Shown one piece after another: positions 15,702 to 40,236 of a stretch of DNA of 41,129 nt (positions are counted from its first letter, which is position 1; each line of letters starts with the position of its first letter). The notes below the pieces were generated by a model that searched no databases, was not told the DNA's origin, and saw only the letters and a list, made by a program, of their open reading frames with translations. This DNA is from Ignavibacteria bacterium (GTDB lineage Bacteria; Bacteroidota; Ignavibacteria; UBA10030; UBA6906), in assembly GCA_027295705.1 (NCBI GenBank), contig JAPUKJ010000040.1, forward strand, positions 1 to 41,129. The letters run 5' to 3'. A program made the position numbers and the translations under genes.

Positions 15702-15719
15702 TACCGGAGCGCGAACGAC

Positions 15720-17519: not shown

Positions 17520-17573
17520 GACGCACTGCTGGCTCGATTGTTCCATTTCAATTTTCGTACGCTGAGAAGCAGA

Positions 17574-17610
17574 AGGGGAAGGACACCATCACTGCCTTCC
17601 CCTCTTTTTT
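17574..17610 (+). terminator. Terminator-like hairpin after tonB
   Basis: AGGGGAAGG-N12-CCTTCCCCT followed by CTTTTTT. Confidence 0.55.
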
Positions 17611-17630
17611 GGTTTTGAGAGAGCAAGGCT

Positions 17631-17828
17631 TTGAGTCTTCCCGCTGTTTTTAGGTATACAATTTTTGGGCTATCGGTTGCTGTGATGGTATTGGGTGTGC
17701 TCTTCATGTTTGGAGTGATTGGTCCGGCTAACATACCGGAACAATTTCGTATGATAATGGGTGCAGTCATCTTTCTCTACGGCGCGTACCGATTTACGGT
17801 TGCCTATTTCAGAAGGTCACAACAATAG
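17631..17828 (+). CDS. Small two-TM membrane protein
   Basis: 65 aa, two hydrophobic helices, G-x-x-x-x-LYGAYR; fits the operon with a 7-bp gap to the next gene; TTG start. Confidence 0.65.
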   Translation: MSLPAVFRYTIFGLSVAVMVLGVLFMFGVIGPANIPEQFRMIMGAVIFLYGAYRFTVAYFRRSQQ

Positions 17829-17835
17829 TTACTAA

Positions 17836-18762
17836 ATGCAGCACTACATTCGAGTTGTCTTGTTGGGGACTTTATTTGTTGTCGCTGCTATAGGATGTGA
17901 GCAACGGCGGGATGTGTCTACAACCAGAGGATCGGTCACAATTGAGTGTGATGAGTCGCTCATGCCGGTAATGCAATTGCAGGCTGAGGATTTCGAACGC
18001 TCATACACAGAGGCCGCGGTGAGGCTTCGTTCTGTGCAGGCGCGGGAAGCAATTGCCGACTTTGTGGATGACAGTGTTAGAGTTATCGTAACTGCAAGAC
18101 CGTTTAATAAGGAGGAGCGGGATGTTATTGCTACTGCGAAGATTGAGTATAAGGAATTTAACGTCGCACTTGATGCTGTAGCAGTGATCATGCACAAGGA
18201 TAACCCGACAAAAGAACTCCGTATCAGTGAGCTTGACAGTATTTTTTCTGGTTTCAGCACGCGATGGTCATGGAAAACGCGAAACAATCTAATTGACGTA
18301 GCAATTTGTGGACTAAACTCCAGTACGAACGAAGTGTTTCGATCTGCAATATTGGAGGACAAGACGTTCACACTTACGGCTACGCGCTTCGATTCCAGTC
18401 AAATGCTTGTTGAATATGTTCTCACCAATCCTAATGCGATCGGGATTGTTGGTCTGAGTTGGTTAAGGGACTACGACGGACAACTACGTGTCGCTGGACT
18501 GGGTGACCCGAATGGACGGCCGGATTCAACTCAGCCCATGGGTCGGTACTATCCTCCGCTGCAAGCCCATGTATATCGTAAGTATTATCCTATTACCACG
18601 CCTGTCTATATATACACCCGGGAGATCCTTATGGATGTGGGCTTAGGATTCATCGCTTACGTCAGCAGCATTCAGGGACAAAAGATTTTCCAAGTGCATG
18701 GATTGGTGCCTGCAACCATGCCTGTTCGTTTGGTAGTAACTACCTCAGAGCCGGTCAAATAA
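17836..18762 (+). CDS. PstS-like (PBP_like_2) substrate-binding lipoprotein
   Basis: Lipobox AIGC, CDESL, VALDAVAVIMHKDNP, NSST, NAIGIVG, YPITTPVYIY. Confidence 0.85.
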   Translation: MQHYIRVVLLGTLFVVAAIGCEQRRDVSTTRGSVTIECDESLMPVMQLQAEDFERSYTEAAVRLRSVQAREAIADFVDDSVRVIVTARPFNKEERDVIATAKIEYKEFNVALDAVAVIMHKDNPTKELRISELDSIFSGFSTRWSWKTRNNLIDVAICGLNSSTNEVFRSAILEDKTFTLTATRFDSSQMLVEYVLTNPNAIGIVGLSWLRDYDGQLRVAGLGDPNGRPDSTQPMGRYYPPLQAHVYRKYYPITTPVYIYTREILMDVGLGFIAYVSSIQGQKIFQVHGLVPATMPVRLVVTTSEPVK

Positions 18763-18763
18763 C

Positions 18764-20982: not shown

Positions 20983-23034
20983 ATGGAAACATTGACTATG
21001 CTTTCACCGGTTCTTGGTTTGTTGGGTCTCGTCGTGGCATTAGCCATCTATTTTTCAATTAAACGGCAACCAGCAGGTAGTGAATTGATGCGTGATCTTG
21101 CTGACCAGATACATGTTGGTGCGATGACGTTTCTGAAGCGTGAATACCTTGTTCTTGTCTTTTTTGTCGCCATCGTTGCAGTACTACTTGGTGTGTTTTT
21201 GCAGTGGCAAACAGCATTGGCATTCTTAAGTGGAGCGACTTGCTCCGTGCTTGCAGGTTTTTTCGGGATGCAGGCGGCGACCAAGGCGAATGTTCGCACT
21301 GCGCAGGCAGCGAAGGAAAAGGGGCAGGGAAAAGCGTTGCTCATAGCATTTAGCGGCGGAGCCGTCATGGGTGTGAGTGTGGCGAGTCTCGGTCTAATTG
21401 GCGTTGGAGTATTCTTCATGTATTTCGGCCAGCCTGAGACGGCGAAGATAATCAACGGTTTTGCGATGGGCGCAAGCTCGATCGCTCTCTTCGCGAGGGT
21501 CGGCGGTGGCATCTTCACGAAGGCGGCGGATGTTGGTGCCGATCTTGTGGGAAAGATTGAAGCTGGAATTCCTGAGGATGACCCGCGCAATCCTGGTGTT
21601 ATTGCAGACAACGTGGGTGACAACGTGGGTGACGTGGCTGGAATGGGCGCGGATATTTTTGCGTCGTACGTAGGGTCTATCATTGCGACCATAGCAATTG
21701 GCGCAACGTTGCTTCCCGAAGGACTGTCACTGTTGCAGGCAAATCCTGAAGGAGGAAGTCAAAGCATCGACATGAAGGCAATTCTCATGTCGCTTCCGAT
21801 CATCCTTGCAGTCATCGGTCTTGTCTCTTCTTTTGTTGGTATTGGTTCCATGAGAATACTGAAGCAATACTCCCCCGCTGCTGCATTGCGATACTCGACC
21901 TTCATTGCCGCAGGTCTGTTTCTGGCCGGCGCGTATTGGTATGTTGCGACTCATGATGTTAGCAACAATGTTTTCTGGGCGATATTTTTTGGCGCGATCG
22001 CTGGCATTCTCATTGGACTAATAACTGAGTATTACACATCTTCCCGGCCTGTCAGGCGAATTGCTTTTGCCAGTAAGACAGGCCCTGCTACTAACATCAT
22101 CGATGGTCTCGCGGTCGGATTGGAGTCGACTGCGCTTCCTGTGCTTGCGATCTGCGTCGCAATCTTTGTTGCAAATTATGTCGCGGGGTTGTATGGAATC
22201 GGCATTGCGGCTGTTGGGATGCTTGCCACAGTTGGTATCACAATGTCGGTTGATGCATATGGACCAATTGCCGACAATGCTGGTGGCATTTCCGAAATGT
22301 CCGGCCTGGGCCCCGAGGTACGAAAGATCACGGATGGTCTTGATGCGTTAGGAAACACGACGGCTGCAATCGGAAAGGGATTTGCCATCGGCTCAGCTGC
22401 GCTGACTGCCCTCGCCCTGTTTGCCGCCTACTCACAAGCGGTCTCAGCATCGAGTGGGATTCCATTACAGATTGCTATCACGGATCCATTGGTTTTTGTC
22501 GGGCTCTTTATCGGCGGCATTCTTCCGTTTTTCATAGCATCGTTGACAATGACTGCTGTTGGCCGCGCGGCTGGAAAGATGGTAGCTGAAATCCGTCGGC
22601 AGTTCCGTGAAATTCCTGGGCTGCTCGAAGGGAAACCAGGTGTGAAGCCCGATGCAGCGCGCTGCGTTGACATCTCAACCACCGCTGCTTTACGTGAGAT
22701 GATCCTCCCCGGAATCACTGCAGTAATTGCACCAGTGGCAATTGGATTCCTTCTTGGACCTTCGGCCCTGGGCGGTATGCTTGCCGGTGCTACGGTGACG
22801 GGAGTTCTCCTTGCACTGATGATGGCAAATGCAGGTGGCGCGTGGGATAACGCCAAGAAGGCGATCGAAAGAGGAGAGATTGAAGGAGAAAGGAAGGGCT
22901 CAGATGCTCACAAAGCCTCAGTGGTGGGCGATACGGTTGGAGATCCATTCAAGGATACATCTGGCCCGTCAATGAACATCCTCATTAAACTGATGTCCGT
23001 GGTTTCACTTGTTATCGCGCCGCTACTTGTATAG
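20983..23034 (+). CDS. hppA: Membrane-integral (H+/Na+)-translocating pyrophosphatase, K+-dependent type
   Basis: [42 protein letters not shown] (Ala = K+-dependent), [14 protein letters not shown]. Confidence 0.97.
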
Positions 23035-25407: not shown

Positions 25408-27645
25408 ATGGTAACGTCGAACAAGACATTTGACCATTTGCAGACCTTGACGCTTCCCGTTGAGGGAATGTCATGCGCGAGCTGCGTTCTTCGCGTTGAA
25501 AAGGCGCTGAAGAAAGTGAATGGTGTCTCCAGTGCCACCGTCAACCTTGCAAACGAGAAAGCCACGATTGAATTCGATACCGCAAAAGCGACGGTCGAAC
25601 AACTGCAGGGAGCTGTGGCGGAGTCAGGTTACACACTACGTATCCCGAAAAGCACTGAGGCCCCCGGTGAACAAGAGATGGAGCAGGCCAAAGGTGTAGC
25701 TGACAAACACCTCATGAGCGAGCTGATCTTAAGTGCAGCTTTTACACTTGCTATCATGGTCCTCAGCATACTGGGTATGGCTGATAGGTTGCCGTTCACG
25801 TTTGATACAATGAACAAGATTCTCTTGGTATTGGCGACGCCTGTGATGTTCATTGCGGGCCGGAGGTTCTTCATGGGTGCCTGGGCAACGGCGAAGCATT
25901 TTACTGCCGACATGAACACGTTAATTGCAGTTGGGACCGGTGCAGCATACGCGTACAGCGTGACAGCGGTACTCTTCCCGGTAGTAGTTGGGACTGCCGG
26001 TGCAACGCCTCATGTCTATTTTGACACGGCCGTTGTGATCATCACATTGATATTACTGGGCAGGTATCTGGAGGCGACTGCCAAAAGCAGAACCTCAGAT
26101 GCAATCAAGAAACTGCTAGGGTTGCAGCCTAAGACAGCGCGTGTGGTGCGCGACGGTAGTGACACAGATGTTTCAATCGATGACGTGCTCTTGGAGGATA
26201 TCGTTATTGTGAGACCGGGAGAAAAAATTCCCGTTGACGGTATCATTACAAAAGGCTTGACAAGTATTGATGAGTCAATGGTGACAGGGGAAAGTCTTCC
26301 TGTTGAAAAGAGTGTAGGTCACAAGGTTGTAGGCGGGACAATCAACAAGAACGGCAGTATCGAATTTCGTGCTACGGCAGTCGGTAAGAACACCGTGCTT
26401 GCTCAGATCGTGAAGCTTGTGGAAGAGGCACAAGGCTCGAAAGCGCCGATACAGAGGCTTGCGGACAGGATTGCTTCCGTGTTTGTGCCCATTGTTATCG
26501 GTATTGCGCTACTGACGTTTTCGCTTTGGTTTTTCGTTGGTCAAAGCAGCTTCACGTATGCGATGGTCAATTTTATTGCTGTGCTTATTATTGCGTGTCC
26601 TTGTGCTCTTGGACTTGCAACACCGACGGCAATTATGGTTGGAACCGGAGTCGGAGCCAGGCTTGGTGTCCTCATCAAGAACGCAGAGAGCCTGGAGCGG
26701 ACACACAAAATTCAGACAGTCATACTGGACAAGACCGGGACTATCACTGAGGGGAAGCCTTCAGTGACGGACGTGATGACATTCAGTGGTTTTGAGCAAA
26801 CGCGGGTTTTGCAAGCGGTGGCGTCGGTGGAGAAACAATCGGAACATCCTCTCGGCCAGGCAATAGTGGAATATGCTGTTAAGAAGAACATCCCCTTGGC
26901 TCCCACAGATGCTTTCCAGTTATCGACAGGTCTCGGAGTAACGGCTGTGGTTGATGGGAACACTGTGGCCGCAGGTAACATGTCTTTTATGAAGGAACAT
27001 GTTTCCTATCTTGATGAACATGGAGAAGTTGCCGACCGTTTCTCTAACGAAGGGAAGACTCCGATCTTTATCGCTATCAATGGGAAGGTTGCTGGTCTCA
27101 TTGCCATCGCAGACACGATTAAAGCTACTGCGCCGGAAGCGATCAAGAAATTGCAGGCAATGGGCCTTGAAGTCATAATGCTCACGGGGGACAACGAACG
27201 GACTGCAAAGGCCATTGCGGTGCAAGCAGGTCTTGACCGATTGATTTCGCAAGTGAAGCCTGACGAGAAGTTACACCATGTGAAAGTCATCCAGGGTGAA
27301 GGGAAGTTCGTTGCGATGGCAGGCGATGGAATCAATGACGCTCCCGCACTCGCTCAGGCTGATGTTGGCATTGCAATGGGGACCGGTACCGATATTGCCA
27401 TGGAGGCAGCAGATATCACACTCATGAAAGGTGATTTAAGGAGCATTGTGCACGCAATACAACTATCTTCACGGACTCTGGGCACGATAAGACAGAATCT
27501 CTTTTGGGCATTCATTTACAATGTTGTCGGAATACCGGTCGCAGCTCTGGGACTGCTCAACCCGATGATCGCGGCTGCTGCCATGGCATTTAGTTCAGTA
27601 AGCGTGGTAAGCAATTCGTTGAGGTTGAAAAGATTCAGGGGGTAA
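25408..27645 (+). CDS. copA: Cu(I)-translocating P1B-1 ATPase
   Basis: [38 protein letters not shown] and MAFSS TM ligands. Confidence 0.95.
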
Positions 27646-27821
27646 CTTATTCAGTGGGTAGACAGTCCAGATGGTTCCCGTCGGGCCGAGCTCGTAGTTA
27701 GACGAGACTGACGAAAGGCATCCAAAGAAGAACAGCTGGAGATCCAATTATTCGCAAGTTGAAATCTGGATTCTCTAGTCCTCATGTGAGGGCTGCGGTC
27801 AGGATTTCACGGGTAAAACCA

Positions 27822-28007
27822 ATGCCACCTAGCTACAAGCGAACCGATAAGCCAATCCGTCCTGTGAAGATCACAAGCTGGATGGGCGGAGAGCATTGGT
27901 ACATAGGCGATGTGCAGTACCTACACCTTGAGGATGCCATCGCGTATTGCGAGAGAATCGGATCACACGTGGGAAGGGGATTAGTTGTTAGTTGGCGGGG
28001 CAGATGA
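27822..28007 (+). CDS. Possible small hypothetical protein (61 aa)
   Basis: Protein-like composition (ITSWMGGEHWYIGDVQYLHLEDAIAYCE); no recognisable family, weak RBS, 3' overlap with the GT4 gene. Confidence 0.3.
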   Translation: MPPSYKRTDKPIRPVKITSWMGGEHWYIGDVQYLHLEDAIAYCERIGSHVGRGLVVSWRGR

Positions 28008-29162
28008 CACTGATGTTATTTCTTTCGTTGCCTTTAAACCTCTGACCTCATAGTACAGTGCTTGGATTTTCTCGATCTGTCTCTTCTGGTCAAAAAATTC
28101 CTCAACGCGCTTTCTTCCAGCCTTTCCCATCTTTCCTCGGAGAGATTCATCATTTATAAGTTTTGCAAGCGCATCCGCCAATTCGCTCGGATTCCTTGGA
28201 TGAACATACAGTCCTGTCTCACCATCTACCACGATGTCTAGTACACCATCGCAATTTGTGGACACGACCGGTCGTTCCATGCCCATAGCTTCGATAAGCA
28301 CGATGCCGAAGGATTCCGCGTGCGATGGGAATGCAAAGATCTCAAACGCTGCCATTACCTCAGGCACATCTCTCCTGAATCCGGTGAATGTTACTATATC
28401 TTGCAGGCCAAGCATCGAGCACATCGTCTTGATCTTCTGCTCGTATTTTTGCTCACCATGGCTGGCCTCGCCGACGATCAGAAAATGGACGGCGGGATAA
28501 TTATTGCGCAGAATGGCAGCAGCTTCGAGTAATTCCTTATGTCCCTTTCCAGGTGAGAATCGTCCAACAAGTCCAACGACAACGATATCATCTGCAATGT
28601 TGAACTCCTTGCGAACGCGTCGTCTGTCGACCCGGTGTGGAGAAAATCTATCAGTATCGATCGCATCATGCACGGTCATGACACGATCAGGGGTTACCGG
28701 AGTTGTGTCAAGGATGTTCTTGTGAATGACCTCGGATACTGCGAGTACTCGGCTGACGTGTGCGTAGGTAAAGCGATGCAGGAGATCTTTTTTGCTGATA
28801 TATGAGCCCACGTGCTTGCTGAGCAAGATGGGGATGCGTTGTCCAGCCAATTTTATTGCGGGGACAATCGTTGCAATGTCTTTTGAAAGGTGGCAGTGAA
28901 TGATTTCGATGTTGTGTCGTTTGAGAAAGCGGCTCAACTTCCAAGCGAGACGAGGATGGAAATACCCGCTTACATTGAGCTGAAGTGTGTCAATGTTGTG
29001 TAGGTTTGCTCCCTGTGCAAGACGACTGCCGGTGCAGCATGCGAGCCATACCTGATGGCTGCGTTTCTGCATCTGCCTTGAAACTTCCATCGATTGCAAC
29101 TCAAGTCCACCCCACGAATGTGAGAAGCAGGTTTGCAGAATGTTGAGCGGGGGATGAGACAT
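27981..29162 (-). CDS. Glycosyltransferase family 4
   Basis: WGGLE, VGRFSPGKGH, FPSHAESFGIVLIEAM, DGETG. Confidence 0.93.
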   Translation of the reverse strand: MSHPPLNILQTCFSHSWGGLELQSMEVSRQMQKRSHQVWLACCTGSRLAQGANLHNIDTLQLNVSGYFHPRLAWKLSRFLKRHNIEIIHCHLSKDIATIVPAIKLAGQRIPILLSKHVGSYISKKDLLHRFTYAHVSRVLAVSEVIHKNILDTTPVTPDRVMTVHDAIDTDRFSPHRVDRRRVRKEFNIADDIVVVGLVGRFSPGKGHKELLEAAAILRNNYPAVHFLIVGEASHGEQKYEQKIKTMCSMLGLQDIVTFTGFRRDVPEVMAAFEIFAFPSHAESFGIVLIEAMGMERPVVSTNCDGVLDIVVDGETGLYVHPRNPSELADALAKLINDESLRGKMGKAGRKRVEEFFDQKRQIEKIQALYYEVRGLKATKEITSVSSAPPTNN

Positions 29163-30255: not shown

Positions 30256-30283
30256 TTGACAGTTTCTTGTAAATGTTTATATT
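30256..30283 (+). promoter_or_regulatory. Near-consensus sigma70 promoter of the beta-barrel/HzsA-like operon
   Basis: TTGACA-N16-TATATT about 100-130 bp upstream of the first gene. Confidence 0.65.
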
Positions 30284-30386
30284 GATGGTATCGATTTTCC
30301 TGTTTTCCCCATATTGCGTGATAGCTGAAAAAAGTAGGAATTTCGACGAGTTCTAAGAGAATAGGGAGTGTGGCAACCACAAAAGG

Positions 30387-30998
30387 GTGACTCCGGTAAT
30401 GGTGCGCTCGCATATGTGTCGGTTGGTCCCCCTTATGTTAGTCCCCCTTGCAATGGCTATTGCACAAGAACGATCTTCAGTTTCCCCCGCCTTTTCAATA
30501 GCTCCATGTGCCTCCTACAACATTTACAGCGAAAGCGTTTCTATGCATTCCGCCATGAGCTATGGCGCGGCGATTACAATGCACCTGACCTCCAGAATTG
30601 GTCTGGAATTCAATGCCCAATTTAGCAAATCGCAGGGGGATTTCGACGTTATCGGAGGCACTGCATTTCTGGGAATCAACACTGCGGCTTACCAGCTACA
30701 ATTCCAGTATTTGGTTTTCAGTCTTGATGAATCCTTTGATGTAGTTGGGACAGCAGGAATCGGAATGGTCAGGTTTACGACAGATGCCCACACAGTTTCC
30801 CTTGGGGCGCTCGGAAAAGTCCTCGTTCCTGAACGCAAGGAGACCCGAAACCAATATACTGTTGGCCTCATTCTTTTTAGGCAACTGGCTTCTAGGATTT
30901 CGCTGCGGCTTGGGCTTGAGGCGAGGTTCATTACACCTTTGTCATCGTTGAAAGCTAGTTACACTATTTCCGGAGGGGTTGCAATTGGGGTGTTTTAG
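30387..30998 (+). CDS. Outer-membrane beta-barrel protein (small, OmpA/OmpW-like fold); start uncertain
   Basis: Signal peptide ending AIA-Q, alternating beta-strand pattern, terminal GGVAIGVF. Confidence 0.7.
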   Translation: MTPVMVRSHMCRLVPLMLVPLAMAIAQERSSVSPAFSIAPCASYNIYSESVSMHSAMSYGAAITMHLTSRIGLEFNAQFSKSQGDFDVIGGTAFLGINTAAYQLQFQYLVFSLDESFDVVGTAGIGMVRFTTDAHTVSLGALGKVLVPERKETRNQYTVGLILFRQLASRISLRLGLEARFITPLSSLKASYTISGGVAIGVF

Positions 30999-31560
30999 CA
31001 AATTTCAAATTGCTCTTTTGATCTTGGTTGGCTTCGGACTGACTACCTCAACGCTGTCGGCTCAGGAAAAAACCAGTTCAACCGATGTTCCTGTTCAGCG
31101 GGGCCCGCTGATCGATCTCAATAAGGGAGTTTCGTTTGAGATTTCCCCCCACACAGGTCTTATGGGACGAAGCGGCACGTTCGGTCTGCGACTTTCGATG
31201 AACTACAGTTCGTTCAATCTCGAACTTGCCGGGGAGCAGGTGATCGGTAAGACCGCCAATCTTTACCCAATATCGGTGAATGCAATTCTGAACCTTGCGA
31301 CAAGAGGACGACTTATTCCCTACGGCGCTGTAGGAGGTGGTCTCTTCATGACCATTCCAGTTAACACCATAGGTGACGAAACCGTCTCCACGCTCGGCAT
31401 TAATTTCGGCGGTGGGGCTAGGTACTATCTAACAAAGCATTTCGGGTTTCGAGTTGAGGCAAAGCAATACATCACAAGCGTGAGCAGCGAAAGGGAGTTG
31501 AAAGATGAGCTTCTGTTTTTTCAGGAAATCAGTCTCGGTGTCACATTCATGTTTCGCTAA
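30979..31560 (+). CDS. Outer-membrane beta-barrel protein
   Basis: Signal peptide LSA-Q, IPYGAVGGG, NFGGGARYYLT, terminal LGVTFMFR; TTG start at 30979 or 30985 after GGAGG. Confidence 0.8.
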   Translation: MQLGCFSKFQIALLILVGFGLTTSTLSAQEKTSSTDVPVQRGPLIDLNKGVSFEISPHTGLMGRSGTFGLRLSMNYSSFNLELAGEQVIGKTANLYPISVNAILNLATRGRLIPYGAVGGGLFMTIPVNTIGDETVSTLGINFGGGARYYLTKHFGFRVEAKQYITSVSSERELKDELLFFQEISLGVTFMFR

Positions 31561-31582
31561 CATCATCTAATGGGATTTACAA

Positions 31583-32146
31583 ATGACGAATCGTTGGAGA
31601 TACGCTTCGATTTTGGTCTTTGTTGCTTTGGTGATGAGTGCACGATTACCAGCACAGGGCCAATTACGCTATCAAAGCAGCATAAGCTTGTCGGCTGGTG
31701 CCTACGCAGCGAGCGGCTTCGGTACTAACCACTATTTAGGAGCGCGATATAACTATTTCTTTTTGAAAGGTAGATATTTTGTTGAAGCTGCAATTGGTTT
31801 CAGCAGTCTCAAATCGGAAGTACTGGAGAGTATCTCCAGGTCGCAGATCTTCGAATCAGAGCGATTGTACTCGTACGAATTTGTCTTTGCGTATGATCCG
31901 AGTCCCTCTGGGAATTTTCCATACGTGGTAGGTGGAGTTGCTGGGATTAATCAGGGTGGTCAGACTAGCTTCGCAGGGGTCATCGGACTTGGCAAAAGAA
32001 TACCGCTCGGTGGTTTTCTAGGTACCGATCAGCTTGGTCTTCGCTACGACGTGCGGGACCAGATATTCTCCCAGAAGATTAATAACGCTGACGAATTCAC
32101 TGCGCATAACATAGTTTTCTCCCTTGGAATGCAGTTTTATTTCTGA
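31583..32146 (+). CDS. Outer-membrane beta-barrel protein (resembles the TIGR04565/OMP_myx_plus type)
   Basis: Signal peptide, PYVVGGVAG, LRYDVRDQIF...HNIVFSLGMQFYF beta-signal. Confidence 0.78.
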   Translation: MTNRWRYASILVFVALVMSARLPAQGQLRYQSSISLSAGAYAASGFGTNHYLGARYNYFFLKGRYFVEAAIGFSSLKSEVLESISRSQIFESERLYSYEFVFAYDPSPSGNFPYVVGGVAGINQGGQTSFAGVIGLGKRIPLGGFLGTDQLGLRYDVRDQIFSQKINNADEFTAHNIVFSLGMQFYF

Positions 32147-32200
32147 TGAGCATCGTACGCTGATGAGGTTAAGAATTATTCATTTGAGAGGTGAGGTCCT

Positions 32201-34438
32201 ATGAACGCATTGTGGATTGTTGTGCAACGCGTCCCATACGTATTGCCATTTGTGCTGATTGGTTTAGTGCTTGCTTCATGTGGTCCTTCTCCCCCCGATG
32301 ACATACTCCAGAAGTCAGGCCAGGCAGCCGTAGTATTTGTGAAAGAGAATAGCCGCCACAATAATCGCAGCCGGGTATCGAGAAGTAACAGGGATGAATA
32401 CTATCCAGGGAGTGATCTGCTCTTCCTCAGCCCGATTTCCTCGCAAGGCGAGCTAACGAACCTTACGGCGCAGTACACTACGCGTAATCAAGCGGATCCG
32501 GAAGACTACGGTGCTGCTGCAGATCCAGAAGTCTCGTACGACGGCAAGAAAATCCTATTTGCCATGAAGGAAAACCGGAGCCGTCTGTGGCACATTTATG
32601 AAATGAATATCGATGGGAGTGGATTGGTTCAATTGACCGATCAAGCAAGTGGCGACGACATGGATCCGACGTATCTGCCCAATGGACAGATAATGTTTAC
32701 GTCGACGCGATCGGGGATCGTTGATGAGTACAATCGGCGACATTCGCCGCTGCTGCACGTTGGCGACAGGGGTTCGGATGGACGACTTATCAATATCAGG
32801 CAGATTTCCTTCAATCAAAGCCACGATACGAATCCCATGGTTCACTCCAGCGGGAAAGTATTTTACAGTCGCTGGGAACACTTGGGCAGTCCGAACAAGT
32901 TTCCGCTCTTTGTTATCAACCCTGATGGAACACGTCCGTTCGTCCTGTATGGGAATCATTCTCCTCGGGAGAGCGGGAGCCGCGCGTTCCTTGAGGCCCG
33001 TGAGCTTTCAGACGGAGGGATAGTATGCTCAATCATGGAGCGAGAATCTGAGTTTGAAGGGGGTGCAATTGCCATTATTGACATTTCCAAATCGGATGAT
33101 AACCTAGCATTCATAACTCCTTCTACAGTTCCATTTAACAATAGAAATCAATTTTCCAGTGCCCTGTTCAAGTCACCTCATCCGATTATCGACAAAAATG
33201 CTTCTGCTGACCGTCGGGAGAAAATCCTCGTTGCAATGTCACCAATACCGATCAATACGGGTGCAGGGGATGACGAAGTTGACTATGGCCTGTATGTGAT
33301 GGACAAGGATGGCAGTAATCTGCGCTTGATCTATAACGACCCGGAATACAATGAGTATGATCCAGTGCCAGTTATGGCGAGAGAGAAACTGCCGGGCGGC
33401 GTACCTCAGGTGATTCCCATGGATCCAAACGTCGCTTCTGCAATGGCGTCTGGTGTAACGACTGGGATGTTCTTCGACGGTAATGTATATGACCGTGCCA
33501 CGAACGATGGTCAAACCCGTCCCGCCGCGACCTTTGTCAATGCTGACGGTTCTGTTGGCCAGGCAAAGTACCTTAGGGTTTTGGAGGCGATTCCACTTCC
33601 TCAAGATCGTAACAAAAGGGGAGGCCCAATTGGCGATACAAATTTTGAAAAGCAGCGAGTTGTGGGTTATGCACCTATCCGCCCAGATGGATCATTCACT
33701 GTGGAGGTACCAGCGAACCGGTCGCTTCACATGCAAACACTGGATGAGAACGGAATGATGCTCGTGAACCAGTTAACATGGGTACAGGTGATGCCGGGGG
33801 AGAAAAGACTCTGTACTGGATGTCACGATTCGCACGATCGAGATAGGATTATTAATGATCTCGAAATTCTGGCTACCCAGCAGGTCCGTAATAAAGCTAC
33901 AGGGTCGACCTACGATGCCGGATTTCACAATGCCGATAATGTAATGAGCCATCCAGCAGCAAGAACAGACACAGTGGATTTCTTTGACAGATACCGCCCA
34001 AACCGGACAAACACAGTACAAGCGATCTTTGATGCACGCTGCATTACGTGTCATGGCACGTCGTTGCCTGCAGGAGGATTGCGATTAGAAAATGTTGCCT
34101 TTGATAAGGTTCCGCCGGGCTCTGGCATGAGCGACGAAAGTTCGGTATATGATTCCTTAACTCGGGACGCCCGCTATCGAACGGCGAATGGAAGTTCGTT
34201 GGACTACGTGACTCGAAATGGTGCGCGTCGCAGCCCATTGATGTGGGTAATGTACAACCGGCAGCTTAATGATCCTGAAAATACTGATTATCGGCCATTG
34301 AGCTACGACCATACGCAATTATGGACAAAGGATCAGTACAACCGGCTCGATCCATTTCTTCCTGGGAATCGAGATCTGTTAACGATTATTGAATGGCTTG
34401 ATGCAGGTACTCAATATTCAAATACCACTGATGAGTAG
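32201..34438 (+). CDS. HzsA-related diheme c lipoprotein (TolB/PD40-like propeller + HZS_alpha middle domain + cytochrome c domain)
   Basis: Lipobox LASC; DPEVSYDGKKILF, DMDPTYLPNGQIMFTSTR, YSRWEH, INPDGT; DGSFTVEVPANRSLHMQTLDENG...PGEKRLCTGCH; second CITCH; C-terminal IIEWLDAG. Confidence 0.85.
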   Translation: MNALWIVVQRVPYVLPFVLIGLVLASCGPSPPDDILQKSGQAAVVFVKENSRHNNRSRVSRSNRDEYYPGSDLLFLSPISSQGELTNLTAQYTTRNQADPEDYGAAADPEVSYDGKKILFAMKENRSRLWHIYEMNIDGSGLVQLTDQASGDDMDPTYLPNGQIMFTSTRSGIVDEYNRRHSPLLHVGDRGSDGRLINIRQISFNQSHDTNPMVHSSGKVFYSRWEHLGSPNKFPLFVINPDGTRPFVLYGNHSPRESGSRAFLEARELSDGGIVCSIMERESEFEGGAIAIIDISKSDDNLAFITPSTVPFNNRNQFSSALFKSPHPIIDKNASADRREKILVAMSPIPINTGAGDDEVDYGLYVMDKDGSNLRLIYNDPEYNEYDPVPVMAREKLPGGVPQVIPMDPNVASAMASGVTTGMFFDGNVYDRATNDGQTRPAATFVNADGSVGQAKYLRVLEAIPLPQDRNKRGGPIGDTNFEKQRVVGYAPIRPDGSFTVEVPANRSLHMQTLDENGMMLVNQLTWVQVMPGEKRLCTGCHDSHDRDRIINDLEILATQQVRNKATGSTYDAGFHNADNVMSHPAARTDTVDFFDRYRPNRTNTVQAIFDARCITCHGTSLPAGGLRLENVAFDKVPPGSGMSDESSVYDSLTRDARYRTANGSSLDYVTRNGARRSPLMWVMYNRQLNDPENTDYRPLSYDHTQLWTKDQYNRLDPFLPGNRDLLTIIEWLDAGTQYSNTTDE

Positions 34439-34802
34439 CTAGCCTAGCACGTTATCTCGTGATGGTAGATATGTTCTGTGTGGGGTTATTTGATAAGGTG
34501 AACAACCAGATTCTTAGCTTCCATCAACAGTTAAGAACGGAGGTAGCTATGACTTCAACAAAATCAGTTAGATCTGTGAGGCTAACGTGGGCGCCATAGT
34601 TTTCTGGCTCCAGGCGTTGCTGAAAAGTGGAACTGAAAAACAACGATTTACCTATCACATAGGATTGGTTTTCAGAGTTAGAAAAAATTTAATCGAACCT
34701 GGTGCACGCAGAACGCGAAGGGCATAGAAGTGCAAAAAATTATTTTGCTCACATTTTACATCAAGCACCAGATTCATTAACCTCACCAAAGGAGGTCTTG
34801 AG

Positions 34803-35561
34803 ATGAAAAATTTACATCACCTTATGTATATTGCCTTATTTTTTTCCGGGCTCATTCTGATTACTGGGTGTAACGAGATGGAGGCTCCAATTCCAGCAGA
34901 TGCTGGCCAACAGTCACTTCTGAAGTCAGGCGACGACGATGACGGCGATGATGACGGCGGGGCTCAGATCCCCTTCGACGAGGTGGAGGTGTTCTTCGAG
35001 TTTAACACCACGGATAACGATCTGGGCTTTCAGTTATTCCTCGATGCAGAAGGCTGGAAGCAGGTCAATGTTTTCGGCCCTGACGGCAAGATCATCAACT
35101 TCAAGGCTAAAAGAGCTTTGAAGGAGCTTGGCATTACCGAGCTGCGCTTCGAGAGCTCCGAGCCGTCGCCAGCTGAGGTCCTGGCCTTGTTCCCACCCGG
35201 GGACTATAAATTCAGGGGCAGGACGGTCGAGGGAGACAAGCTGGTGGGCACGGGGGAGCTGTCGCACGCCTTTCTGGCCGCGCCCTCCATCTTCGTCAAC
35301 GGCGACCCGATCAACGGCGATCCGGTGGACCCTGACAGCACTGTCATTGGATGGGACGCCCCAGGAGCTGAGCGCGTCCAGGTCATCGTCGGGAACGAAG
35401 ACCTCGGCCATTTCTTCGACGTCATTGTCTCGCCTGAGACCACGAGCCTGAATGTTCCGCCGCAGTTCCTCCAGCCAGCCACGGAGTACAAGGCCGAGGT
35501 CCTGGCGATATCGGCAAACGGAAACAGGACCATCACGGAGGGCACTTTCGTCACGGAGTAG
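34803..35561 (+). CDS. Acidic hypothetical lipoprotein
   Basis: AAGGAGGT RBS, lipobox ITGC, Asp-rich linker, globular domain (FEFNTTDNDLGFQLFLDAEGW...GITELRFESSEP). Confidence 0.85.
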   Translation: MKNLHHLMYIALFFSGLILITGCNEMEAPIPADAGQQSLLKSGDDDDGDDDGGAQIPFDEVEVFFEFNTTDNDLGFQLFLDAEGWKQVNVFGPDGKIINFKAKRALKELGITELRFESSEPSPAEVLALFPPGDYKFRGRTVEGDKLVGTGELSHAFLAAPSIFVNGDPINGDPVDPDSTVIGWDAPGAERVQVIVGNEDLGHFFDVIVSPETTSLNVPPQFLQPATEYKAEVLAISANGNRTITEGTFVTE

Positions 35562-35622
35562 TGCTTGACTGATGACGATGATGAGGGTAATAATGGTGGG
35601 AAGCAACTGGCAGAAACAGAAG

Positions 35623-35748
35623 CACAGCGTTCGCTGGGATGGAAAGAACAACCAAGGAAATACCGTATCAAGTGGGTTTTATGTGTACAAGTTGCAGGCG
35701 AAAGGCCTCGTGGCAACAAAGAAGTTGGTATTTACGAAGCGAGTATGA
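35623..35748 (+). pseudogene. Orphan C-terminal remnant of a FlgD-Ig/T9SS sorting domain
   Basis: Frame not in ORF track: HSVRWDGKNNQGNTVSSGFYVYKLQAKGLVATKKLVFTKRV*. This matches the WDG..N..G..V.SG.Y.Y.L......TKKL tail of secreted proteins; the N-terminal YPNPFNP half is absent. Confidence 0.7.
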
Positions 35749-35849
35749 AAGAACTTGGGGATCTCTAGGATCCACGGATATGATGTGTACTAGAATAATT
35801 TGCGCGTTAGGTGCACATTCATCTTTTGTCGGTGAGGGCACAAGAAGTT

Positions 35850-36362
35850 ATGAGTAAAGTCCGGCTGCGATACATCATTTGCCTCCTTCTTTTGCCCGGC
35901 TGGTCGGTTGCGTCGGCCCTTGGGCCTGAGTGGTTCGGGGGGAAAGCGCCTGACTTTACGCTTGAGACGATTGACGGCCGTGCTAAGCTCTCCCTGAGTG
36001 ACCTGCGCGGACAGGTTGTTGTAGTCGATTTCTGGGCAACTTGGTGTGCGCCGTGCAAACGTTACCTGCCTCGGCTCGCGGAACTCGAGATAGCCCACGA
36101 CGGCGTGAGAGTTTTGGCAGTGAATATTGACGACGAGAGGCGAAACGCTGTTGAATTCCTGAAACGCAACCGCATACACCTCACAGCATTGTTTGATGAA
36201 AAGAAAGAAGTTGTCGAAGAATACGGTGTTTCTGCAATGCCTTCAGCTTTTGTCATCGATAAGCGTGGAGTTGTTCGTTTTGTACACACCGGTTATACAG
36301 ACAACGAAGTGGAGCAAATAAAAAATGAAGTCGAAGATCTGCTACAGGAGGCTACAATATGA
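35850..36362 (+). CDS. TlpA/ResA-like exported thiol-disulfide oxidoreductase
   Basis: APDFTL, VDFWATWCAPC, cis-Pro MPSAFVIDKRG; ATG 35850. Confidence 0.92.
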   Translation: MSKVRLRYIICLLLLPGWSVASALGPEWFGGKAPDFTLETIDGRAKLSLSDLRGQVVVVDFWATWCAPCKRYLPRLAELEIAHDGVRVLAVNIDDERRNAVEFLKRNRIHLTALFDEKKEVVEEYGVSAMPSAFVIDKRGVVRFVHTGYTDNEVEQIKNEVEDLLQEATI

Positions 36363-36583
36363 GATCAGTTCTTAGCGTATGCGTTGCTGTAGTCGCTGTT
36401 GGCTTAGCAGTGCAGGGCTGTGCAACAGTGAAACCCTATGAACGCGAGAAACTAGCCGATCCGATTATGGAGCGCCAAAATCAATTTTCGAAGCAGACGC
36501 TTGAACAGAAATTCTTCTCGACACGCGAGGGGAGCATCGGAGGTGCAAGTGGAATTGGCGGTGGATGCGGCTGTGCCAAGTAG
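36359..36583 (+). CDS. DUF4266-family small lipoprotein
   Basis: Lipobox VQGC, VKPYEREKLADPIM, REGSIGG..GGGCGC; ATGA overlap with tlpA. Confidence 0.88.
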   Translation: MRSVLSVCVAVVAVGLAVQGCATVKPYEREKLADPIMERQNQFSKQTLEQKFFSTREGSIGGASGIGGGCGCAK

Positions 36584-36624
36584 TTCAACGTCGGTTAGTC
36601 TGGTTGGTTCCTAGGCGAGAATCT

Positions 36625-37764
36625 ATGCGCCGAAATCTAAGATGGATTTCAATAATGCTCCTGCCTATGATGCTATTTTGGTCAACCATGCCAGCGATTG
36701 CAGGGGGCGACCAAATGGGATTTACAACCTATTTTTTCTCTGACAGCGGGGAGAATAGTGTCATTACGAGTTCGTTCAACCTTGCTAAGAAGCTCCTGCA
36801 GCAAACGGTATTCTTGATTGACATTGAGCTTGATAATGTGACCGTGCCGCCGGTTACCGCAGTCACCGGTGCTACAAGGCCACAGCGTAGGAAAAGCGAG
36901 CCTTTTGAAAAGAGCCGAGGACAAGTAATTGTTGGGATCGAACAAGGCATCGGCCCGAACACGACAATAGCAGGAAACTTCTATCGCAGTCAGGAAGTCG
37001 ACTACACGTCAAGCGCTGTCGTCGGCACTTTCAGTCAGGATCTTTTCCAGAAGAACACGACAATCACACTTCGCGGACAGTATAGTGCCGATCGGGTCGG
37101 GAAGATCACGGAGGTCGGAGACATTCTCAACAAAAAAAAGAAAGTGTACACAGGTGCACTCAACATCAGCCAACTCCTCTCGCCGACAACGGTACTGGAT
37201 ATGAGCTATGATTTCGTGTACCTCAAGGGGTTCTTGAGTGATCCGTACCGTTTGGTGAAGGTGCATGATCTGAATGGGGCAGTCACGACGACGGATGAAA
37301 TGCATCCGCGCAAGCGCACACGTCATGCAGGTACAGGAAAGATCAGCCAGTTAATTCCTACGATCAAGGCGTCACTTATTGGGAGCTACAGATACTATTT
37401 CGACACGTGGAGGGTGCGCTCGCACACTGCTGAGGTCAAGCTGAACAAGTACATCGTGAAGGATCTCATTCTTGGGATTAATTACCGTTACTATACCCAG
37501 ACTGCGGCAAAGTTCTACCAAGACAAATATGTGGGTCAGGAATTCCTCAATCACGGATTAAGAACCGCGGATTATAAGCTGCAAAAGTTCAGCTCTAACA
37601 ATTTTGGCTTCAGTTTGACGTATTTGCTTCGCGGGCTAGGCAAGGCCTACCCTGACCTTGAATTTCTGCAGAACTCGTCTATCGAGGTCATGTACTTCAG
37701 GTATTTCAATGATTTAGATTTCACGGCGGATATTATTCAAATGGGTATCAAGTTTTCCATATAG
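36625..37764 (+). CDS. DUF3570-family outer-membrane protein
   Basis: Signal peptide, AVTGAT, SQEVDYTS, QKNTTITL, GFLSDPYR, YRYYFDTW...HT, YRYYTQTAAKFY, TADYKL; follows tlpA-DUF4266; ATG 36625. Confidence 0.87.
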   Translation: MRRNLRWISIMLLPMMLFWSTMPAIAGGDQMGFTTYFFSDSGENSVITSSFNLAKKLLQQTVFLIDIELDNVTVPPVTAVTGATRPQRRKSEPFEKSRGQVIVGIEQGIGPNTTIAGNFYRSQEVDYTSSAVVGTFSQDLFQKNTTITLRGQYSADRVGKITEVGDILNKKKKVYTGALNISQLLSPTTVLDMSYDFVYLKGFLSDPYRLVKVHDLNGAVTTTDEMHPRKRTRHAGTGKISQLIPTIKASLIGSYRYYFDTWRVRSHTAEVKLNKYIVKDLILGINYRYYTQTAAKFYQDKYVGQEFLNHGLRTADYKLQKFSSNNFGFSLTYLLRGLGKAYPDLEFLQNSSIEVMYFRYFNDLDFTADIIQMGIKFSI

Positions 37765-37806
37765 GCATGTTTATTTTTAACCCTTTGTACATGTGGGAGA
37801 GAGACA

Positions 37807-40236
37807 ATGAAACAATTACTGAAATTAGCCTTGGTGTTCCCCGTGCTCGTTGGGTCGCTTAGTTATAGTGGTGGATCTCAAAGACCGGAATATCTGGGTG
37901 CAAACTGGGCGCGTGTTTCAGACAAGGTGCAGATTGAGCTCATCGTAGATGAGTTACGTGCTGTTGCTGAGGGACGATTAAGTGGGAGGATAGTGCGGAA
38001 TCACGTTGCCCCGGATTTGGACCTTTCATCAATATTTAAGGTTAGCAGTACCTTACCTGCTGCGACCCGATCGGCCCATATTTATGCAGGCGCATCTGAA
38101 GTGCTGGTAAACGGGAAAACTGCATCGATAGAAACAGGCGCTGGTGAACGATTATTGTTTGAGAAGATCAACAACACCTGGAGAGTAACTGGCGGATCGA
38201 TGAGGGTACAGCAAGCCTTGGTCAGTCCGGAAAATGTAACATCGCTTACTATGGGCGACGGCACCTCCAAGGGGAAAACGTTCGTTCAAACTCCTATGAG
38301 TCGTGAGCATGGCATTGGCCGTTTGTCGCGCAGCGTTACGCGTGCAAGGATCGATCGCGCGCTCTTCAGCACACCTGAGAAGACCGCATCGTATTACTAT
38401 GCGCACTACATGGAATCGGCCCCCTATGTTTCGGCGACGTACATTCAATTCGTCACTGATCCGGACTGGAATCGGATCGTGTACGGCAATATGAATCACT
38501 GGATCAAGTCCTACGATAACGTGCTCGGTCCTTCGGCGATTGTGACTGATGCTGAAGGCAGAGTATTTGTTGGAGAAACCGGCAACAAGCGAGTTACTGT
38601 CCTTCGTATCGTTGGTGATGGGAGTGATGCTCAGCTTCAACCGCTGTATTACATTCCTAACATCACTAACCCGAGTGACATCGCTTTGAACGACAATGGC
38701 ACCCCGCTTGACGTCAGCGATGACCTCCTGTATGTTGCGGACGCTTCGCAAAACAAGATCCTTAAATACCTCCTAGGACCCTCTGCCGCAACACTTGTCA
38801 AAACGTTTGATGGTTTTGATACACCAACCTGTGTTCTCGTTGGGAAATGGAATGGGGCTAGCAGCGGCCTCCTCTATGTTGTGGACCAAGTTGCCAAACG
38901 TATCCGATTGTTCAACGACACTGGATCAGAGCTTTCTCTCATCAAAGAAGTGAGAGGCGATTACAGTCAGTACTTCAAATCGATCAAGGCTGATCACTTT
39001 GGGAATATCTATGTCGTTGACAACGTTAACTCACAGGTTTTCAAATTCACGGCAGCTTTTGAATTGCTTGACTCCGAGGGTGGTGATGATGTGTTCGCAG
39101 CTCTTGGTAATGTCGATATTCCATTCGGCAAGATAGTGATCGATGGCCAGGGTACATATTGGGCCGGGTTTGACCAGATGTTTGCGGTGGAGCGTTGGGC
39201 GGAGGCCAGCGGTGCGCAGCGTCGGACGCTCGGTCTTAGCCTGAAGAACATCGAGTTTCGTTCTGACCGCGATGTCAGCACCGTAGACAATCAGTTTATC
39301 TTGACCGACTTCGGAGACGTCAAAGTGCGGGTGTATGATAGTAGAAACAGTTTAGTCCGAACGTTGAATTCAGCGTGGATGATCTCTGGCTGGAAGAATA
39401 TTACGTGGGATCGGCGCAACGATGCAGGTGTGCAGGTTCCTGCCGATACGTATCGTTACGAAATTGCAGCAACTTCCGCGTACAGAGAAGAACCGACTGT
39501 GTCGCTCACCCAGTTCTATCTGCCGATGTATTATTGGGAAAACAGTGGGAGCAGTAAGCAATCGGATGATGCGCACCTTGTCCAGGGTAGCGCCCTTGCA
39601 TGGGGGACAGAGCCATCGCAGTTGGCGAACGAACATGCGACATCGGTGCAGTACAGATTCAAAGGATTGAATCCTGAGAGTGAGTATGAAGTGTCCGCAG
39701 AATACGTTGCGAATGATGGCGTTCGTCGTATGCAAGACATGACGGTGAGTGGTCAGCAGCTTCACGAAGCGATGATGGTTTCCAACACGCCGACGCAGAC
39801 AGGATTCATCGCGTTGCCGAAGGAGACATTCGCAACTGGAGAAGTGGTCATTAGCATCAACGCACGTGCAGAGGGATCAGCAATTGTTTCCCAGTTGTGG
39901 TTCAAGGAGACCGGTGTAGGGTTTAGTCTGCAACAGGTGAACGAGTCTGTTCCTACTTCATACGCGCTGGAACAGAACTATCCGAATCCATTCAATCCCT
40001 CTACCGTGATCCGGTATTCAATACCAATAGATGGCCCGGTGGCTCTAAAGGTGTATGACATTACAGGACGCGAGGTTGTAACGCTGGTGGATGAGCATAA
40101 ATCTGCCGGAACGTATAAAGCGCGTTTTGATATTGGGATAGCAACAGGCGGCAGAAACCTTGCATCAGGTGTTTACTTCTACCGACTAACAGCAGGAGAC
40201 TTTTCGGAGACGAAGAAGCTACTATTGCTCAAGTAA
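37807..40236 (+). CDS. Large secreted multidomain protein: NHL-like propeller, internal FlgD-Ig domain, beta-sandwich, T9SS type-A CTD
   Basis: Signal peptide; repeats PSAIVTDAEGRVFVGETGNKRV, LYVADASQNKI, GNIYVVDNVNSQV; RVYDSRNSLVRTL..ITWDRRNDAG; QNYPNPFNP..SGVYFYRL..TKKLLLLK. Confidence 0.87.
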   Translation: MKQLLKLALVFPVLVGSLSYSGGSQRPEYLGANWARVSDKVQIELIVDELRAVAEGRLSGRIVRNHVAPDLDLSSIFKVSSTLPAATRSAHIYAGASEVLVNGKTASIETGAGERLLFEKINNTWRVTGGSMRVQQALVSPENVTSLTMGDGTSKGKTFVQTPMSREHGIGRLSRSVTRARIDRALFSTPEKTASYYYAHYMESAPYVSATYIQFVTDPDWNRIVYGNMNHWIKSYDNVLGPSAIVTDAEGRVFVGETGNKRVTVLRIVGDGSDAQLQPLYYIPNITNPSDIALNDNGTPLDVSDDLLYVADASQNKILKYLLGPSAATLVKTFDGFDTPTCVLVGKWNGASSGLLYVVDQVAKRIRLFNDTGSELSLIKEVRGDYSQYFKSIKADHFGNIYVVDNVNSQVFKFTAAFELLDSEGGDDVFAALGNVDIPFGKIVIDGQGTYWAGFDQMFAVERWAEASGAQRRTLGLSLKNIEFRSDRDVSTVDNQFILTDFGDVKVRVYDSRNSLVRTLNSAWMISGWKNITWDRRNDAGVQVPADTYRYEIAATSAYREEPTVSLTQFYLPMYYWENSGSSKQSDDAHLVQGSALAWGTEPSQLANEHATSVQYRFKGLNPESEYEVSAEYVANDGVRRMQDMTVSGQQLHEAMMVSNTPTQTGFIALPKETFATGEVVISINARAEGSAIVSQLWFKETGVGFSLQQVNESVPTSYALEQNYPNPFNPSTVIRYSIPIDGPVALKVYDITGREVVTLVDEHKSAGTYKARFDIGIATGGRNLASGVYFYRLTAGDFSETKKLLLLK

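Follow-up and report, generated by a model that had tools for sequence, protein, structure and literature searches.

A conserved envelope gene set links the TlpA-DUF4266-DUF3570 core to an HzsA-like two-haem lipoprotein in an Ignavibacteria genome

We analyzed a 41,129-nucleotide stretch of DNA (the window) from an Ignavibacteria bacterium (assembly GCA_027295705.1, contig JAPUKJ010000040.1, forward strand), in which a run of genes at 30256-37764 encodes small outer-membrane (OM) barrels, an HzsA-like lipoprotein with two haem motifs, a TlpA-type thioredoxin, a DUF4266 lipoprotein, and a DUF3570 barrel. Content, motifs, folds, and synteny across phyla show that this is a real, conserved envelope gene set. 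The set probably carries electrons to the cell surface. On balance, we lean toward reading it as one envelope redox module, in which a thiol-to-flavin core and a haem-bearing accessory arm would reduce a small oxidant or metal at the OM. A first-pass annotation had read the run as an uncharacterized haem, thiol, and flavin machine of the envelope, and this interpretation is partly supported overall. The genes and motifs that it named are present where it placed them, as judged from open reading frames (ORFs), Pfam, NCBIfam, and motif coordinates, and so are its three redox motif sets (two CXXCH, a WCAPC plus a CGC tail, and one TGAT). The layout is as follows.

30256-30283, + strand: sigma-70-like promoter pattern TTGACA-N16-TATATT, matching 11/12 consensus positions
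30387-30998, + strand: bar1, small exported protein, probably an OM beta-barrel; no Pfam or NCBIfam match
30979-31560, + strand: bar2, small OM beta-barrel (PF13505, OMP_b-brl)
31583-32146, + strand: bar3, small exported protein, probably an OM beta-barrel (TIGR04565 below cut-off, Atlas features)
32201-34438, + strand: HzsA-like lipoprotein with two haem motifs, 745 amino acids (aa) (PF18582 HZS_alpha, PD40)
34439-35848, + strand: strain-specific 1.41-kb insertion, outside the conserved system (metagenome contigs, absence from related loci)
35850-36362, + strand: TlpA/ResA-type exported thioredoxin with WCAPC (AhpC-TSA, Redoxin)
36359-36583, + strand: DUF4266 lipoprotein with C-terminal GGCGC (PF14086)
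36625-37764, + strand: DUF3570 16-strand OM barrel with TGAT motif (PF12094); ORF open from 36565
37807-40236, + strand: NHL-repeat/FlgD_ig surface protein sorted by the type IX secretion system (T9SS) (TIGR04183, FlgD_ig, NHL)

By scanning an alignment of the HzsA-like protein against one genome per species, we recovered 72 loci. Window proteins were mapped onto these by tblastn, and only loci with enough flanking DNA were counted. We assigned groups manually, using record titles and tiers of identity; several labels of metagenome-assembled genomes (MAGs) are plainly wrong. A DUF3570 gene followed the HzsA-like gene on the same strand in 50 of the 52 loci whose downstream DNA reached 3.5 kb or more, at a distance of no more than 6.5 kb. 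This was true of all 29 Calditrichota/Ignavibacteria/“Bacteroidota”-labelled loci, all 11 Fibrobacterota-labelled loci, the one Reichenbachiella locus, all five Nitrospirota loci, and all four from Beta- and Gammaproteobacteria. The two loci without the linkage, both “delta” (0/2), were the most distant matches (27-28% identity). DUF4266 was detected in 45 of the 52 loci, which is an undercount because the protein is only ~74 residues long, and TlpA was found in cis in 33. Upstream of the HzsA-like gene, bar2 and bar3 occurred in 51 of 59 loci, and these were all 51 loci of the Fibrobacteres-Chlorobi-Bacteroidetes (FCB) lineage, whose HzsA-like orthologues share 47-81% identity. The third barrel, bar1, was present in 19 of 30 loci, in the Calditrichota/Ignavibacteria-like group only. 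The T9SS NHL protein lay directly downstream in every Calditrichota/Ignavibacteria-like locus (26/26) and in none elsewhere (0/18). The barrel and HzsA-like genes and the TlpA-DUF4266-DUF3570 trio are therefore found together in other genomes (DUF3570 in 50/52 loci, bar2 and bar3 in 51/51 FCB loci), as the first-pass annotation had supposed, and the link to T9SS cargo that it proposed is fixed in this lineage. We note that some MAG labels (L012, L041, L042, and several “Chitinophagales”) conflict with the affinities of their genes; these records are labelled Deltaproteobacteria, Bifidobacteriales, or Chitinophagales, and their genes group with Calditrichota/Ignavibacteria-like or Fibrobacterota loci.

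Pfam searches of eight representative loci found the same families in Nitrospirota, Beta-, and Gammaproteobacteria, there in a different order and with ApbE. The order begins with ApbE, the HzsA-like gene, a small protein, a protein combining SH3 with a barrel, and a barrel, and continues with TlpA, DUF4266, DUF3570, sometimes ApbE, a small protein, and a tetratricopeptide repeat (TPR) protein. The first-pass annotation had named an association of this kind in Proteobacteria, and the loci bear it out. No ApbE lay within ~5 kb in the four FCB loci examined. In an unrooted tree of 29 DUF3570 rows, six of them unlinked to HzsA-like genes, the FCB-linked rows formed one clade (99/99) and the linked Nitrospirota and proteobacterial rows another (100/99), with the unlinked rows falling between the two. 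Slam-like surface export was considered for the downstream TPR proteins of Proteobacteria and Nitrospirota but found no support, as these matched neither DUF560 nor another barrel family even at E <= 1.

Within the window’s own phylum in GTDB, DUF3570 was present in 69 of 301 genomes and HZS_alpha in 20. The two adjoined each other in six genomes, all of the window’s own family and including this one, while two of the 301 carried both unlinked. Six DUF3570 loci lacking an HzsA-like gene had arrangements already published, with either TlpA-DUF4266-DUF3570 with DsbD or NusG_II-ApbE, or Trx7-ApbE-DUF4266-DUF3570. Thioredoxins of the AhpC-TSA/Redoxin type and of the PF13899 type both occur beside DUF3570 in this phylum.

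The HzsA-like lipoprotein (lipobox Cys27; signal peptides and lipoboxes of all window proteins were assigned by eye) consists of a beta-propeller, an HZS_alpha middle domain, and a C-terminal domain. One haem motif, CTGCH, lies in the middle domain (aa 538-542, nt 33812-33826) and the other, CITCH, in the C-terminal domain (aa 614-618, nt 34040-34054). The protein matched PF18582 at 7.3e-22 (78.2 bits), PD40, and, by phmmer, the Kuenenia HzsA chain 5c2v_A at 2.6e-25. Its AlphaFold2 (AF2) model, with a predicted local distance difference test (pLDDT) score of 70.5 and a predicted template modelling (pTM) score of 0.72, returned 5c2v_A as the top Foldseek match over its full length (E 4e-31; template modelling (TM) scores 0.65/0.64), followed by TolB propellers only. 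Still, the protein is not a hydrazine synthase. It scored 145.2 bits against the cut-off of 800 for the NCBIfam equivalog NF052339, and no beta or gamma hydrazine synthase subunit family was found among the window ORFs. In the phmmer alignment alone, the haem ligand Tyr591 of HzsA falls opposite Asp546, and the window protein stops short of the distal ligand His772, four residues past the last aligned position. Cytochrome c maturation genes are present in the genome. The HzsA-like proteins of Nitrospirota and Proteobacteria are longer, at 814-991 aa, with three CXXCH motifs in six of the seven read and two in the other (L075). Two HzsA-like proteins (L074 and L070) carry short, Cys-containing C-terminal tails, GGCG-like and TCK. 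The Haft preprint reports that in a few species the trio has a JDVT-CTERM protein as a neighbour. We rejected such an anchor for the HzsA-like proteins, none of whose 14 C-termini read showed the tail of Cys, transmembrane segment, and Arg-rich end. An HzsA-like/TlpA fusion in L041 that might have served as a Rosetta stone was likewise only apparent, the record holding a run of 100 N.

Of the three core proteins, TlpA matched AhpC-TSA (2.3e-27) and Redoxin (2.8e-24) in Pfam, with WCAPC at nt 36045-36056; its best NCBIfam match was ResA (4.6e-29), and both ResA and DsbE fell below their cut-offs. DUF4266 matched PF14086 at 6.7e-17 (62.6 bits vs a cut-off of 27), with its CGC at aa 70-72; C21 and G68-G69-C70-G71-C72 were invariant in 30 of 30 alignment rows. 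DUF3570 matched PF12094 at 1.5e-37 (129.8 bits vs a cut-off of 25). According to the main text of PMC8238504, the Chlorobium DUF3570 protein is flavinylated by ApbE at two [S/T]GA[S/T] motifs. Here, there is a single flavinylation-type motif, TGAT, at residues 81-84 (nt 36865-36876), and exactly one strict [ST]GA[ST] occurs at the homologous site in all 46 FCB orthologues. At the first of the Chlorobium-type sites the alignment shows VPP, so only one of the two motifs is present. By contrast, all five Nitrospirota DUF3570 proteins and three of the four proteobacterial ones have two tandem relaxed sites.

No ApbE was found among the window ORFs; the genome’s only copy, which has a hydrophobic N-terminus, is on another contig (C186, L003). 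Its neighbours are a NusG_II gene, a protein like heptaprenyl-synthase component I, and two ABC ATPases. Two further genomes of this phylum (L080, L083) have the ApbE/NusG_II pair immediately next to DUF3570, and the neighbourhood may be a flavin-supply unit for ApbE. Searches of the genome, which is 92.6% complete, found no FMN_bind, NqrB/RnfD, or DUF2271, leaving DUF3570 as the only recognizable ApbE substrate here. ApbE was likewise present but unlinked in the five other FCB carriers (5/5), including two complete chromosomes. A full-length DsbD is encoded elsewhere in the genome.

Structure prediction suggests how the core may be assembled. The AF2 model of DUF3570, built from 29 sequences (pLDDT 87.3, pTM 0.76), is a 16-strand barrel with the motif in a 19-residue loop (75-93) after strand 3. 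The motif loop shares its end of the barrel with the other long loops (203-229 and 293-321) and with the near-invariant residues. Both termini of OM barrels are usually periplasmic, so the long-loop end would face outward or fold into the lumen. For the complex, we supplied DUF3570 residues 28-379 and DUF4266 residues 21-74, each as an alignment. The pair reached an ipSAE of 0.78 (runs of 0.72, 0.78, and 0.78), while the best of three controls gave 0.00. Among solved complexes, 58 of 80 scored at least this high, as did 2 of 110 mismatched pairs, a rough yardstick only, since our own alignments were used. The runs shared at least 89% of contacts, and the pLDDT of the partner was at least 65. 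Contacting DUF3570 residues face the lumen, at alternating positions of each strand from the short-turn end up to the long-loop end, which places DUF4266 as a plug filling the lumen. The conserved F52-G58 segment of DUF4266 would touch DUF3570 residues 258-266, 290-292, 317-319, 324-326, and 360-370 at the long-loop end. The model supports binding of DUF4266 to DUF3570, with DUF4266 predicted to plug the barrel.

Every electron-transfer step proposed below is an inference, as are the substrate, which way electrons flow, and where the HzsA-like protein sits. Cytoplasmic reducing power would pass from thioredoxin through DsbD across the inner membrane to the CXXC of TlpA, and from there to the CXC tail of the DUF4266 lipoprotein, the putative plug within the 16-strand DUF3570 barrel. 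CGC disulfides are less reducing than TlpA-type CXXC, and the order from TlpA to DUF4266 would fit with this. The CXC would then reduce flavin mononucleotide (FMN) on the DUF3570 loop, attached by the genome’s single, unlinked ApbE. From the FMN, electrons might pass one at a time to the two haems of the HzsA-like lipoprotein, the flavin serving as a converter between two-electron and one-electron chemistry. The propeller-capped haem site would reduce a small oxidant or a metal at or beyond the OM. This HzsA-like lipoprotein and the two or three small OM barrels would form the accessory arm, and in this lineage reduction would occur beside the T9SS-displayed NHL protein. In a bolder form of the proposal, to which we give a limited probability, the set would be a third kind of OM electron conduit, with DUF4266 as a “thiol wire” inside a 16-strand barrel that bears a covalent flavin and feeds a surface HzsA-like haem enzyme.

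Several observations weigh against a single module of this kind. In the phylum sample, 63 of the 69 genomes with DUF3570 have no HzsA-like neighbour, and the core must therefore work without the HzsA-like arm. Given that the dependence between DUF3570 and the HzsA-like protein is one-sided, the latter and its barrels seem to be an accessory arm added to a core that is sufficient by itself. In the nearest group, 16 of the 29 loci have no TlpA in the cluster (present in 13/29). FCB DUF3570 has a lone flavin site together with an unlinked ApbE, and the leading Asp of the motif is replaced by Thr or Ser in 26 of 30 loci of the subclade, the window reading TAVTGAT. In a passage of an ApbE review (PMC12052999), changing D to A had only minor effects, and changing G to A left ~50% flavinylation. 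The flavin loop makes no confident contact in the DUF4266/DUF3570 model, so the proximity of CXC and FMN is our supposition, and DUF4266 residues 49-58 lie with the flavin loop at the conventionally extracellular end of the barrel, beyond the reach of a periplasmic TlpA. The HzsA-like model is of moderate confidence. Finally, the run is split here by the 1.41-kb insertion, and a second promoter-like site, TTGACT-N18-AATAAT, stands ahead of TlpA at 35565-35594.

Other explanations can account for parts of these data. The set could instead serve reductive uptake or transport, with the plugged DUF3570 barrel as a channel, the haem lipoprotein reducing a metal such as Fe(III) at the surface to let it in, and the thiol and flavin groups gating or energizing passage. 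The plug-in-barrel prediction does look like gated transporters, TonB-dependent iron receptors are the nearest structural matches of the DUF3570 barrel, and the window and three close relatives have a heavy-metal P-type ATPase upstream of the cluster. However, these Foldseek matches reflect generic likeness among OM barrels (TM 0.5-0.58, ~10% identity), with MtrB, which is much larger than a 16-strand barrel, ranked fifth (TMq 0.53). The ATPase neighbour is limited to the window’s own family, and across phyla the cluster conserves neither a transporter nor a metal-binding family. We consider uptake unlikely on these grounds, even with the 25 DUF3570 clusters that the main text of PMC8238504 reports alongside a VIT1 ferrous-iron transporter. 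Electrons might also run in reverse, the HzsA-like protein oxidizing a small reduced compound (of nitrogen, sulfur, or another kind) and passing electrons through flavin to thiols and disulfides, for example in envelope disulfide chemistry. The direction is reversible in principle according to the flavinylation paper (PMC8238504, main text), and haem alpha-I of HzsA is described as catalytic on hydroxylamine and ammonia in a passage of PMC12758564. Yet TlpA- and DsbD-type proteins are known suppliers of reductant, in general and in the main text of PMC8238504, and key catalytic features of HzsA are missing (the Tyr591 to Asp546 replacement, no beta-gamma partner), which makes reverse flow less likely still.

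A quite different possibility is that TlpA is a ResA/CcmG-like apocytochrome reductase for maturation of the HzsA-like protein, with DUF4266 and DUF3570 belonging to a separate, neighbouring system. TlpA has ResA as its best NCBIfam match, albeit below the cut-off, and is dispensable in cis in those 16 of 29 close loci. Against this, TlpA-DUF4266-DUF3570 occurs without an HzsA-like gene in most genomes, and loci lacking TlpA still have DUF4266 and DUF3570 behind the HzsA-like gene (29/29), so we regard a maturation role as a slim prospect, slightly behind reverse flow. Chance or lineage-specific adjacency of unrelated envelope genes is very hard to credit. The insertion does show that the locus tolerates unrelated genes, but linkage holds in 50 of 52 loci from at least four depositor-labelled phyla and through a rearranged gene order, and HzsA-linked DUF3570 falls into two well-supported clades (99/99 and 100/99). 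Our preferred reading remains a thiol-to-flavin core with a haem accessory arm.

The organization of the run itself was partly as first described. All genes are on the + strand, with overlaps of 20 nt between bar1 and bar2 and 4 nt between TlpA and DUF4266, but the proposed single co-oriented run is broken by the unrelated 34439-35848 segment. Similarly, the promoter pattern is present at 30256-30283, but sigma-70-like sites are not enriched in the region (19 found vs 14.1 +/- 3.7 expected from shuffled sequence), and we therefore treat it as a pattern only. Terminator-like sites numbered 8 vs 9.6 +/- 2.7 expected, and the + strand showed none in the gaps on either side of the 252-aa gene within the insertion. 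The T9SS tail of the downstream protein (37807-40236) scored 43.7 bits against the TIGR04183 cut-off of 23, and an NCBIfam search found a T9SS C-terminal sorting domain in none of the six core proteins.

Three OM barrels had been claimed upstream, and one of them, bar2, is established by family (OMP_b-brl 6.2e-9, 36.7 bits vs a cut-off of 28.7), while bar1 and bar3 lack a family above cut-off and are only probable. For bar1, whose likely start is the ATG at 30399 or 30414, no Pfam or NCBIfam family matched, TIGR04565 included. The Atlas model of its residues 57-203 gave TM scores of 0.75-0.83 to small OM-barrel clusters, with feature scores of at most 0.97. Against TIGR04565 (OMP_myx_plus; cut-off 60 bits), bar2 scored 31.8 bits and bar3, which covers the whole model, 43.9 bits (2.4e-11), both below, and bar3 had an Atlas feature score of 0.96 to OMP_b-brl clusters. 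The Atlas features of 0.96-0.97 to these clusters, together with the TM scores of the bar1 model, are our reason for regarding bar1 and bar3 as probable OM beta-barrels. Paralogy among the three was not supported, hhalign probabilities of 11%, 29%, and 0.8% giving no detectable kinship.

The 1410 nt between the HzsA-like stop (34438) and TlpA comprise a 365-nt non-coding stretch and two ORFs.

34803-35561, + strand: 252-aa lipoprotein with an acidic stretch and a weak fn3-like tail
35572-35748, + strand: 58-aa orphan ORF, T9SS-tail-like; it resembles the final strands of a T9SS/FlgD_ig tail that lacks the protein in front

Neither the unrelated lipoprotein nor the orphan ORF was found in any of the 72 related loci. 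The insertion is real and polymorphic, because a contig from metagenome run X7, from a population ~93% identical, joins 34438 straight to 35849 and skips the 1410 nt, while contigs from runs X2 (33802-34819) and X3 (34785-35255) extend into it. The X7 joint also points to ATG 35850 as the TlpA start. The 58-aa ORF is probably a remnant of the insertion event. The 252-aa protein belongs to a large unnamed family with 430 matches at E <= 0.001, at 49-68% identity among the 119 matches listed besides the window’s own protein, and its labels span Rhodothermia, Gemmatimonadales, Gammaproteobacteria, and an archaeal MAG. A further contig from run X3 joins 30570 to 37795, with 39 letters on its shorter side and 4 other letters between. 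The join omits 7224 nt, nearly exactly the block from the barrels and HzsA-like gene to TlpA, DUF4266, and DUF3570, and could reflect a relative without the block or a chimeric join.

Elsewhere in the window, the cluster is preceded at 25408-29162 by the heavy-metal P-type ATPase (HMA domain) and a divergently oriented GT4 glycosyltransferase, a pair seen here and in three close relatives only (L007, L037, L065). Genes for ExbB, ExbD, ExbD, TonB, a phosphate-binding-protein-like protein, and a large TPR protein occupy 14922-20572 and are followed by an H+-pyrophosphatase at 20983-23034; an H+-pyrophosphatase also lies just upstream of the cluster in a Fibrobacteria locus (L046). At 5232-8361, two squalene/phytoene-synthase-family genes precede an amine-oxidase-type flavoprotein, an arrangement that resembles the HpnC/HpnD/HpnE squalene route.

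These results join two orphan subjects, the DUF3570 flavin barrel system, with >500 clusters according to the main text of PMC8238504, and the widespread relatives of HzsA outside anammox bacteria. Through the conserved linkage each orphan family gains a partner that can be tested, and the predicted plug in the barrel supplies a concrete architecture. If the thiol-to-flavin-to-haem reading is true, it would provide an electron route through the OM without a multihaem cytochrome, both in uncultured sediment lineages and in cultured Proteobacteria such as Caldimonas mangrovi (L074). There are implications for how bacteria handle redox chemistry outside the cell and defend their surface against oxidants, and for how the anammox enzyme arose in evolution. 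Were the set indeed a third kind of conduit, bacteria without multihaem porin-cytochrome complexes could carry out extracellular redox catalysis, and the non-anammox HzsA relatives would gain a physiological partner.

Among known systems, the pathways from DsbD to TlpA, ResA, or CcmG have two features in common with this one: the exported thioredoxin is a CXXC protein of AhpC-TSA/Redoxin type, and the genome encodes DsbD in full length. Their clients are apocytochromes, CuA sites, and methionine sulfoxide reductases, whereas the client proposed here is a CXC lipoprotein with a flavin barrel, and TlpA misses all equivalog cut-offs. Kuenenia stuttgartiensis HzsA (PDB 5C2V chain A) has the same three-part architecture and both CXXCH sites, but identity is ~20%, the window protein is a lipoprotein, and no beta or gamma genes are nearby. 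The non-anammox HZS-alpha proteins described in a passage of Hagglund et al. 2025 (PMC12758564) are similar in being distant homologues with a canonical haem site and absent catalytic residues. Those clades have an adjacent fused beta-gamma gene and often FG-GAP or ABC-transporter neighbours, whereas the window clade lacks all of these and is linked to DUF3570. MtrCAB (PDB 6R2Q) resembles the proposed system only in how it works, with a partner inserted into the lumen of a barrel and a redox lipoprotein at the surface. By contrast, the predicted insert here is a 54-residue CXC lipoprotein, the cluster has no multihaem protein, and the barrel, with 16 strands and no sequence relationship, would itself carry FMN.

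The closest relatives are the clusters of ApbE, DUF3570, a thioredoxin-like protein, and DUF4266 reported by Méheust et al. 2021, 227 with DsbD and 316 without, for which the main text (PMC8238504) proposed a DsbD-fed hybrid thioredoxin/flavin relay and called the function uncertain. The first-pass annotation’s statement that the trio normally accompanies ApbE and has no established function agrees with that text. Its label of “uncharacterized” applies to the function, but not to the core, which is published, with the Chlorobium DUF3570 protein shown to be flavinylated (PMC8238504, main text). The window shares with these clusters its three exported core proteins and their order, the CXC tail of DUF4266, the [S/T]GA[S/T] motif, and a genome that encodes DsbD and ApbE. 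It differs in that ApbE and DsbD lie outside the cluster, there is one flavin site rather than two, the thioredoxin is of AhpC-TSA/Redoxin type where the paper names PF13899, and the core comes with an HzsA-like cytochrome, small barrels, and a T9SS protein. In the main text of PMC8238504, the terms “hydrazine,” “HZS,” “PD40,” and “PF18582” each occur zero times, and we found no publication that pairs an HzsA-like arm with the DUF3570 system. Literature searches on DUF3570 and DUF4266 returned nothing concerning HzsA, and searches pairing HZS_alpha or hydrazine synthase alpha with ApbE or flavinylation gave zero occurrences among the matches listed. The TlpA/DUF4266/DUF3570/ApbE core was therefore known already, while the haem arm was not found in print. 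What is new here, in addition, is the set of FCB traits (a single flavin site, ApbE in trans, and a T9SS partner), the strain-specific insertion that splits this copy, and the prediction of a plug in the barrel.

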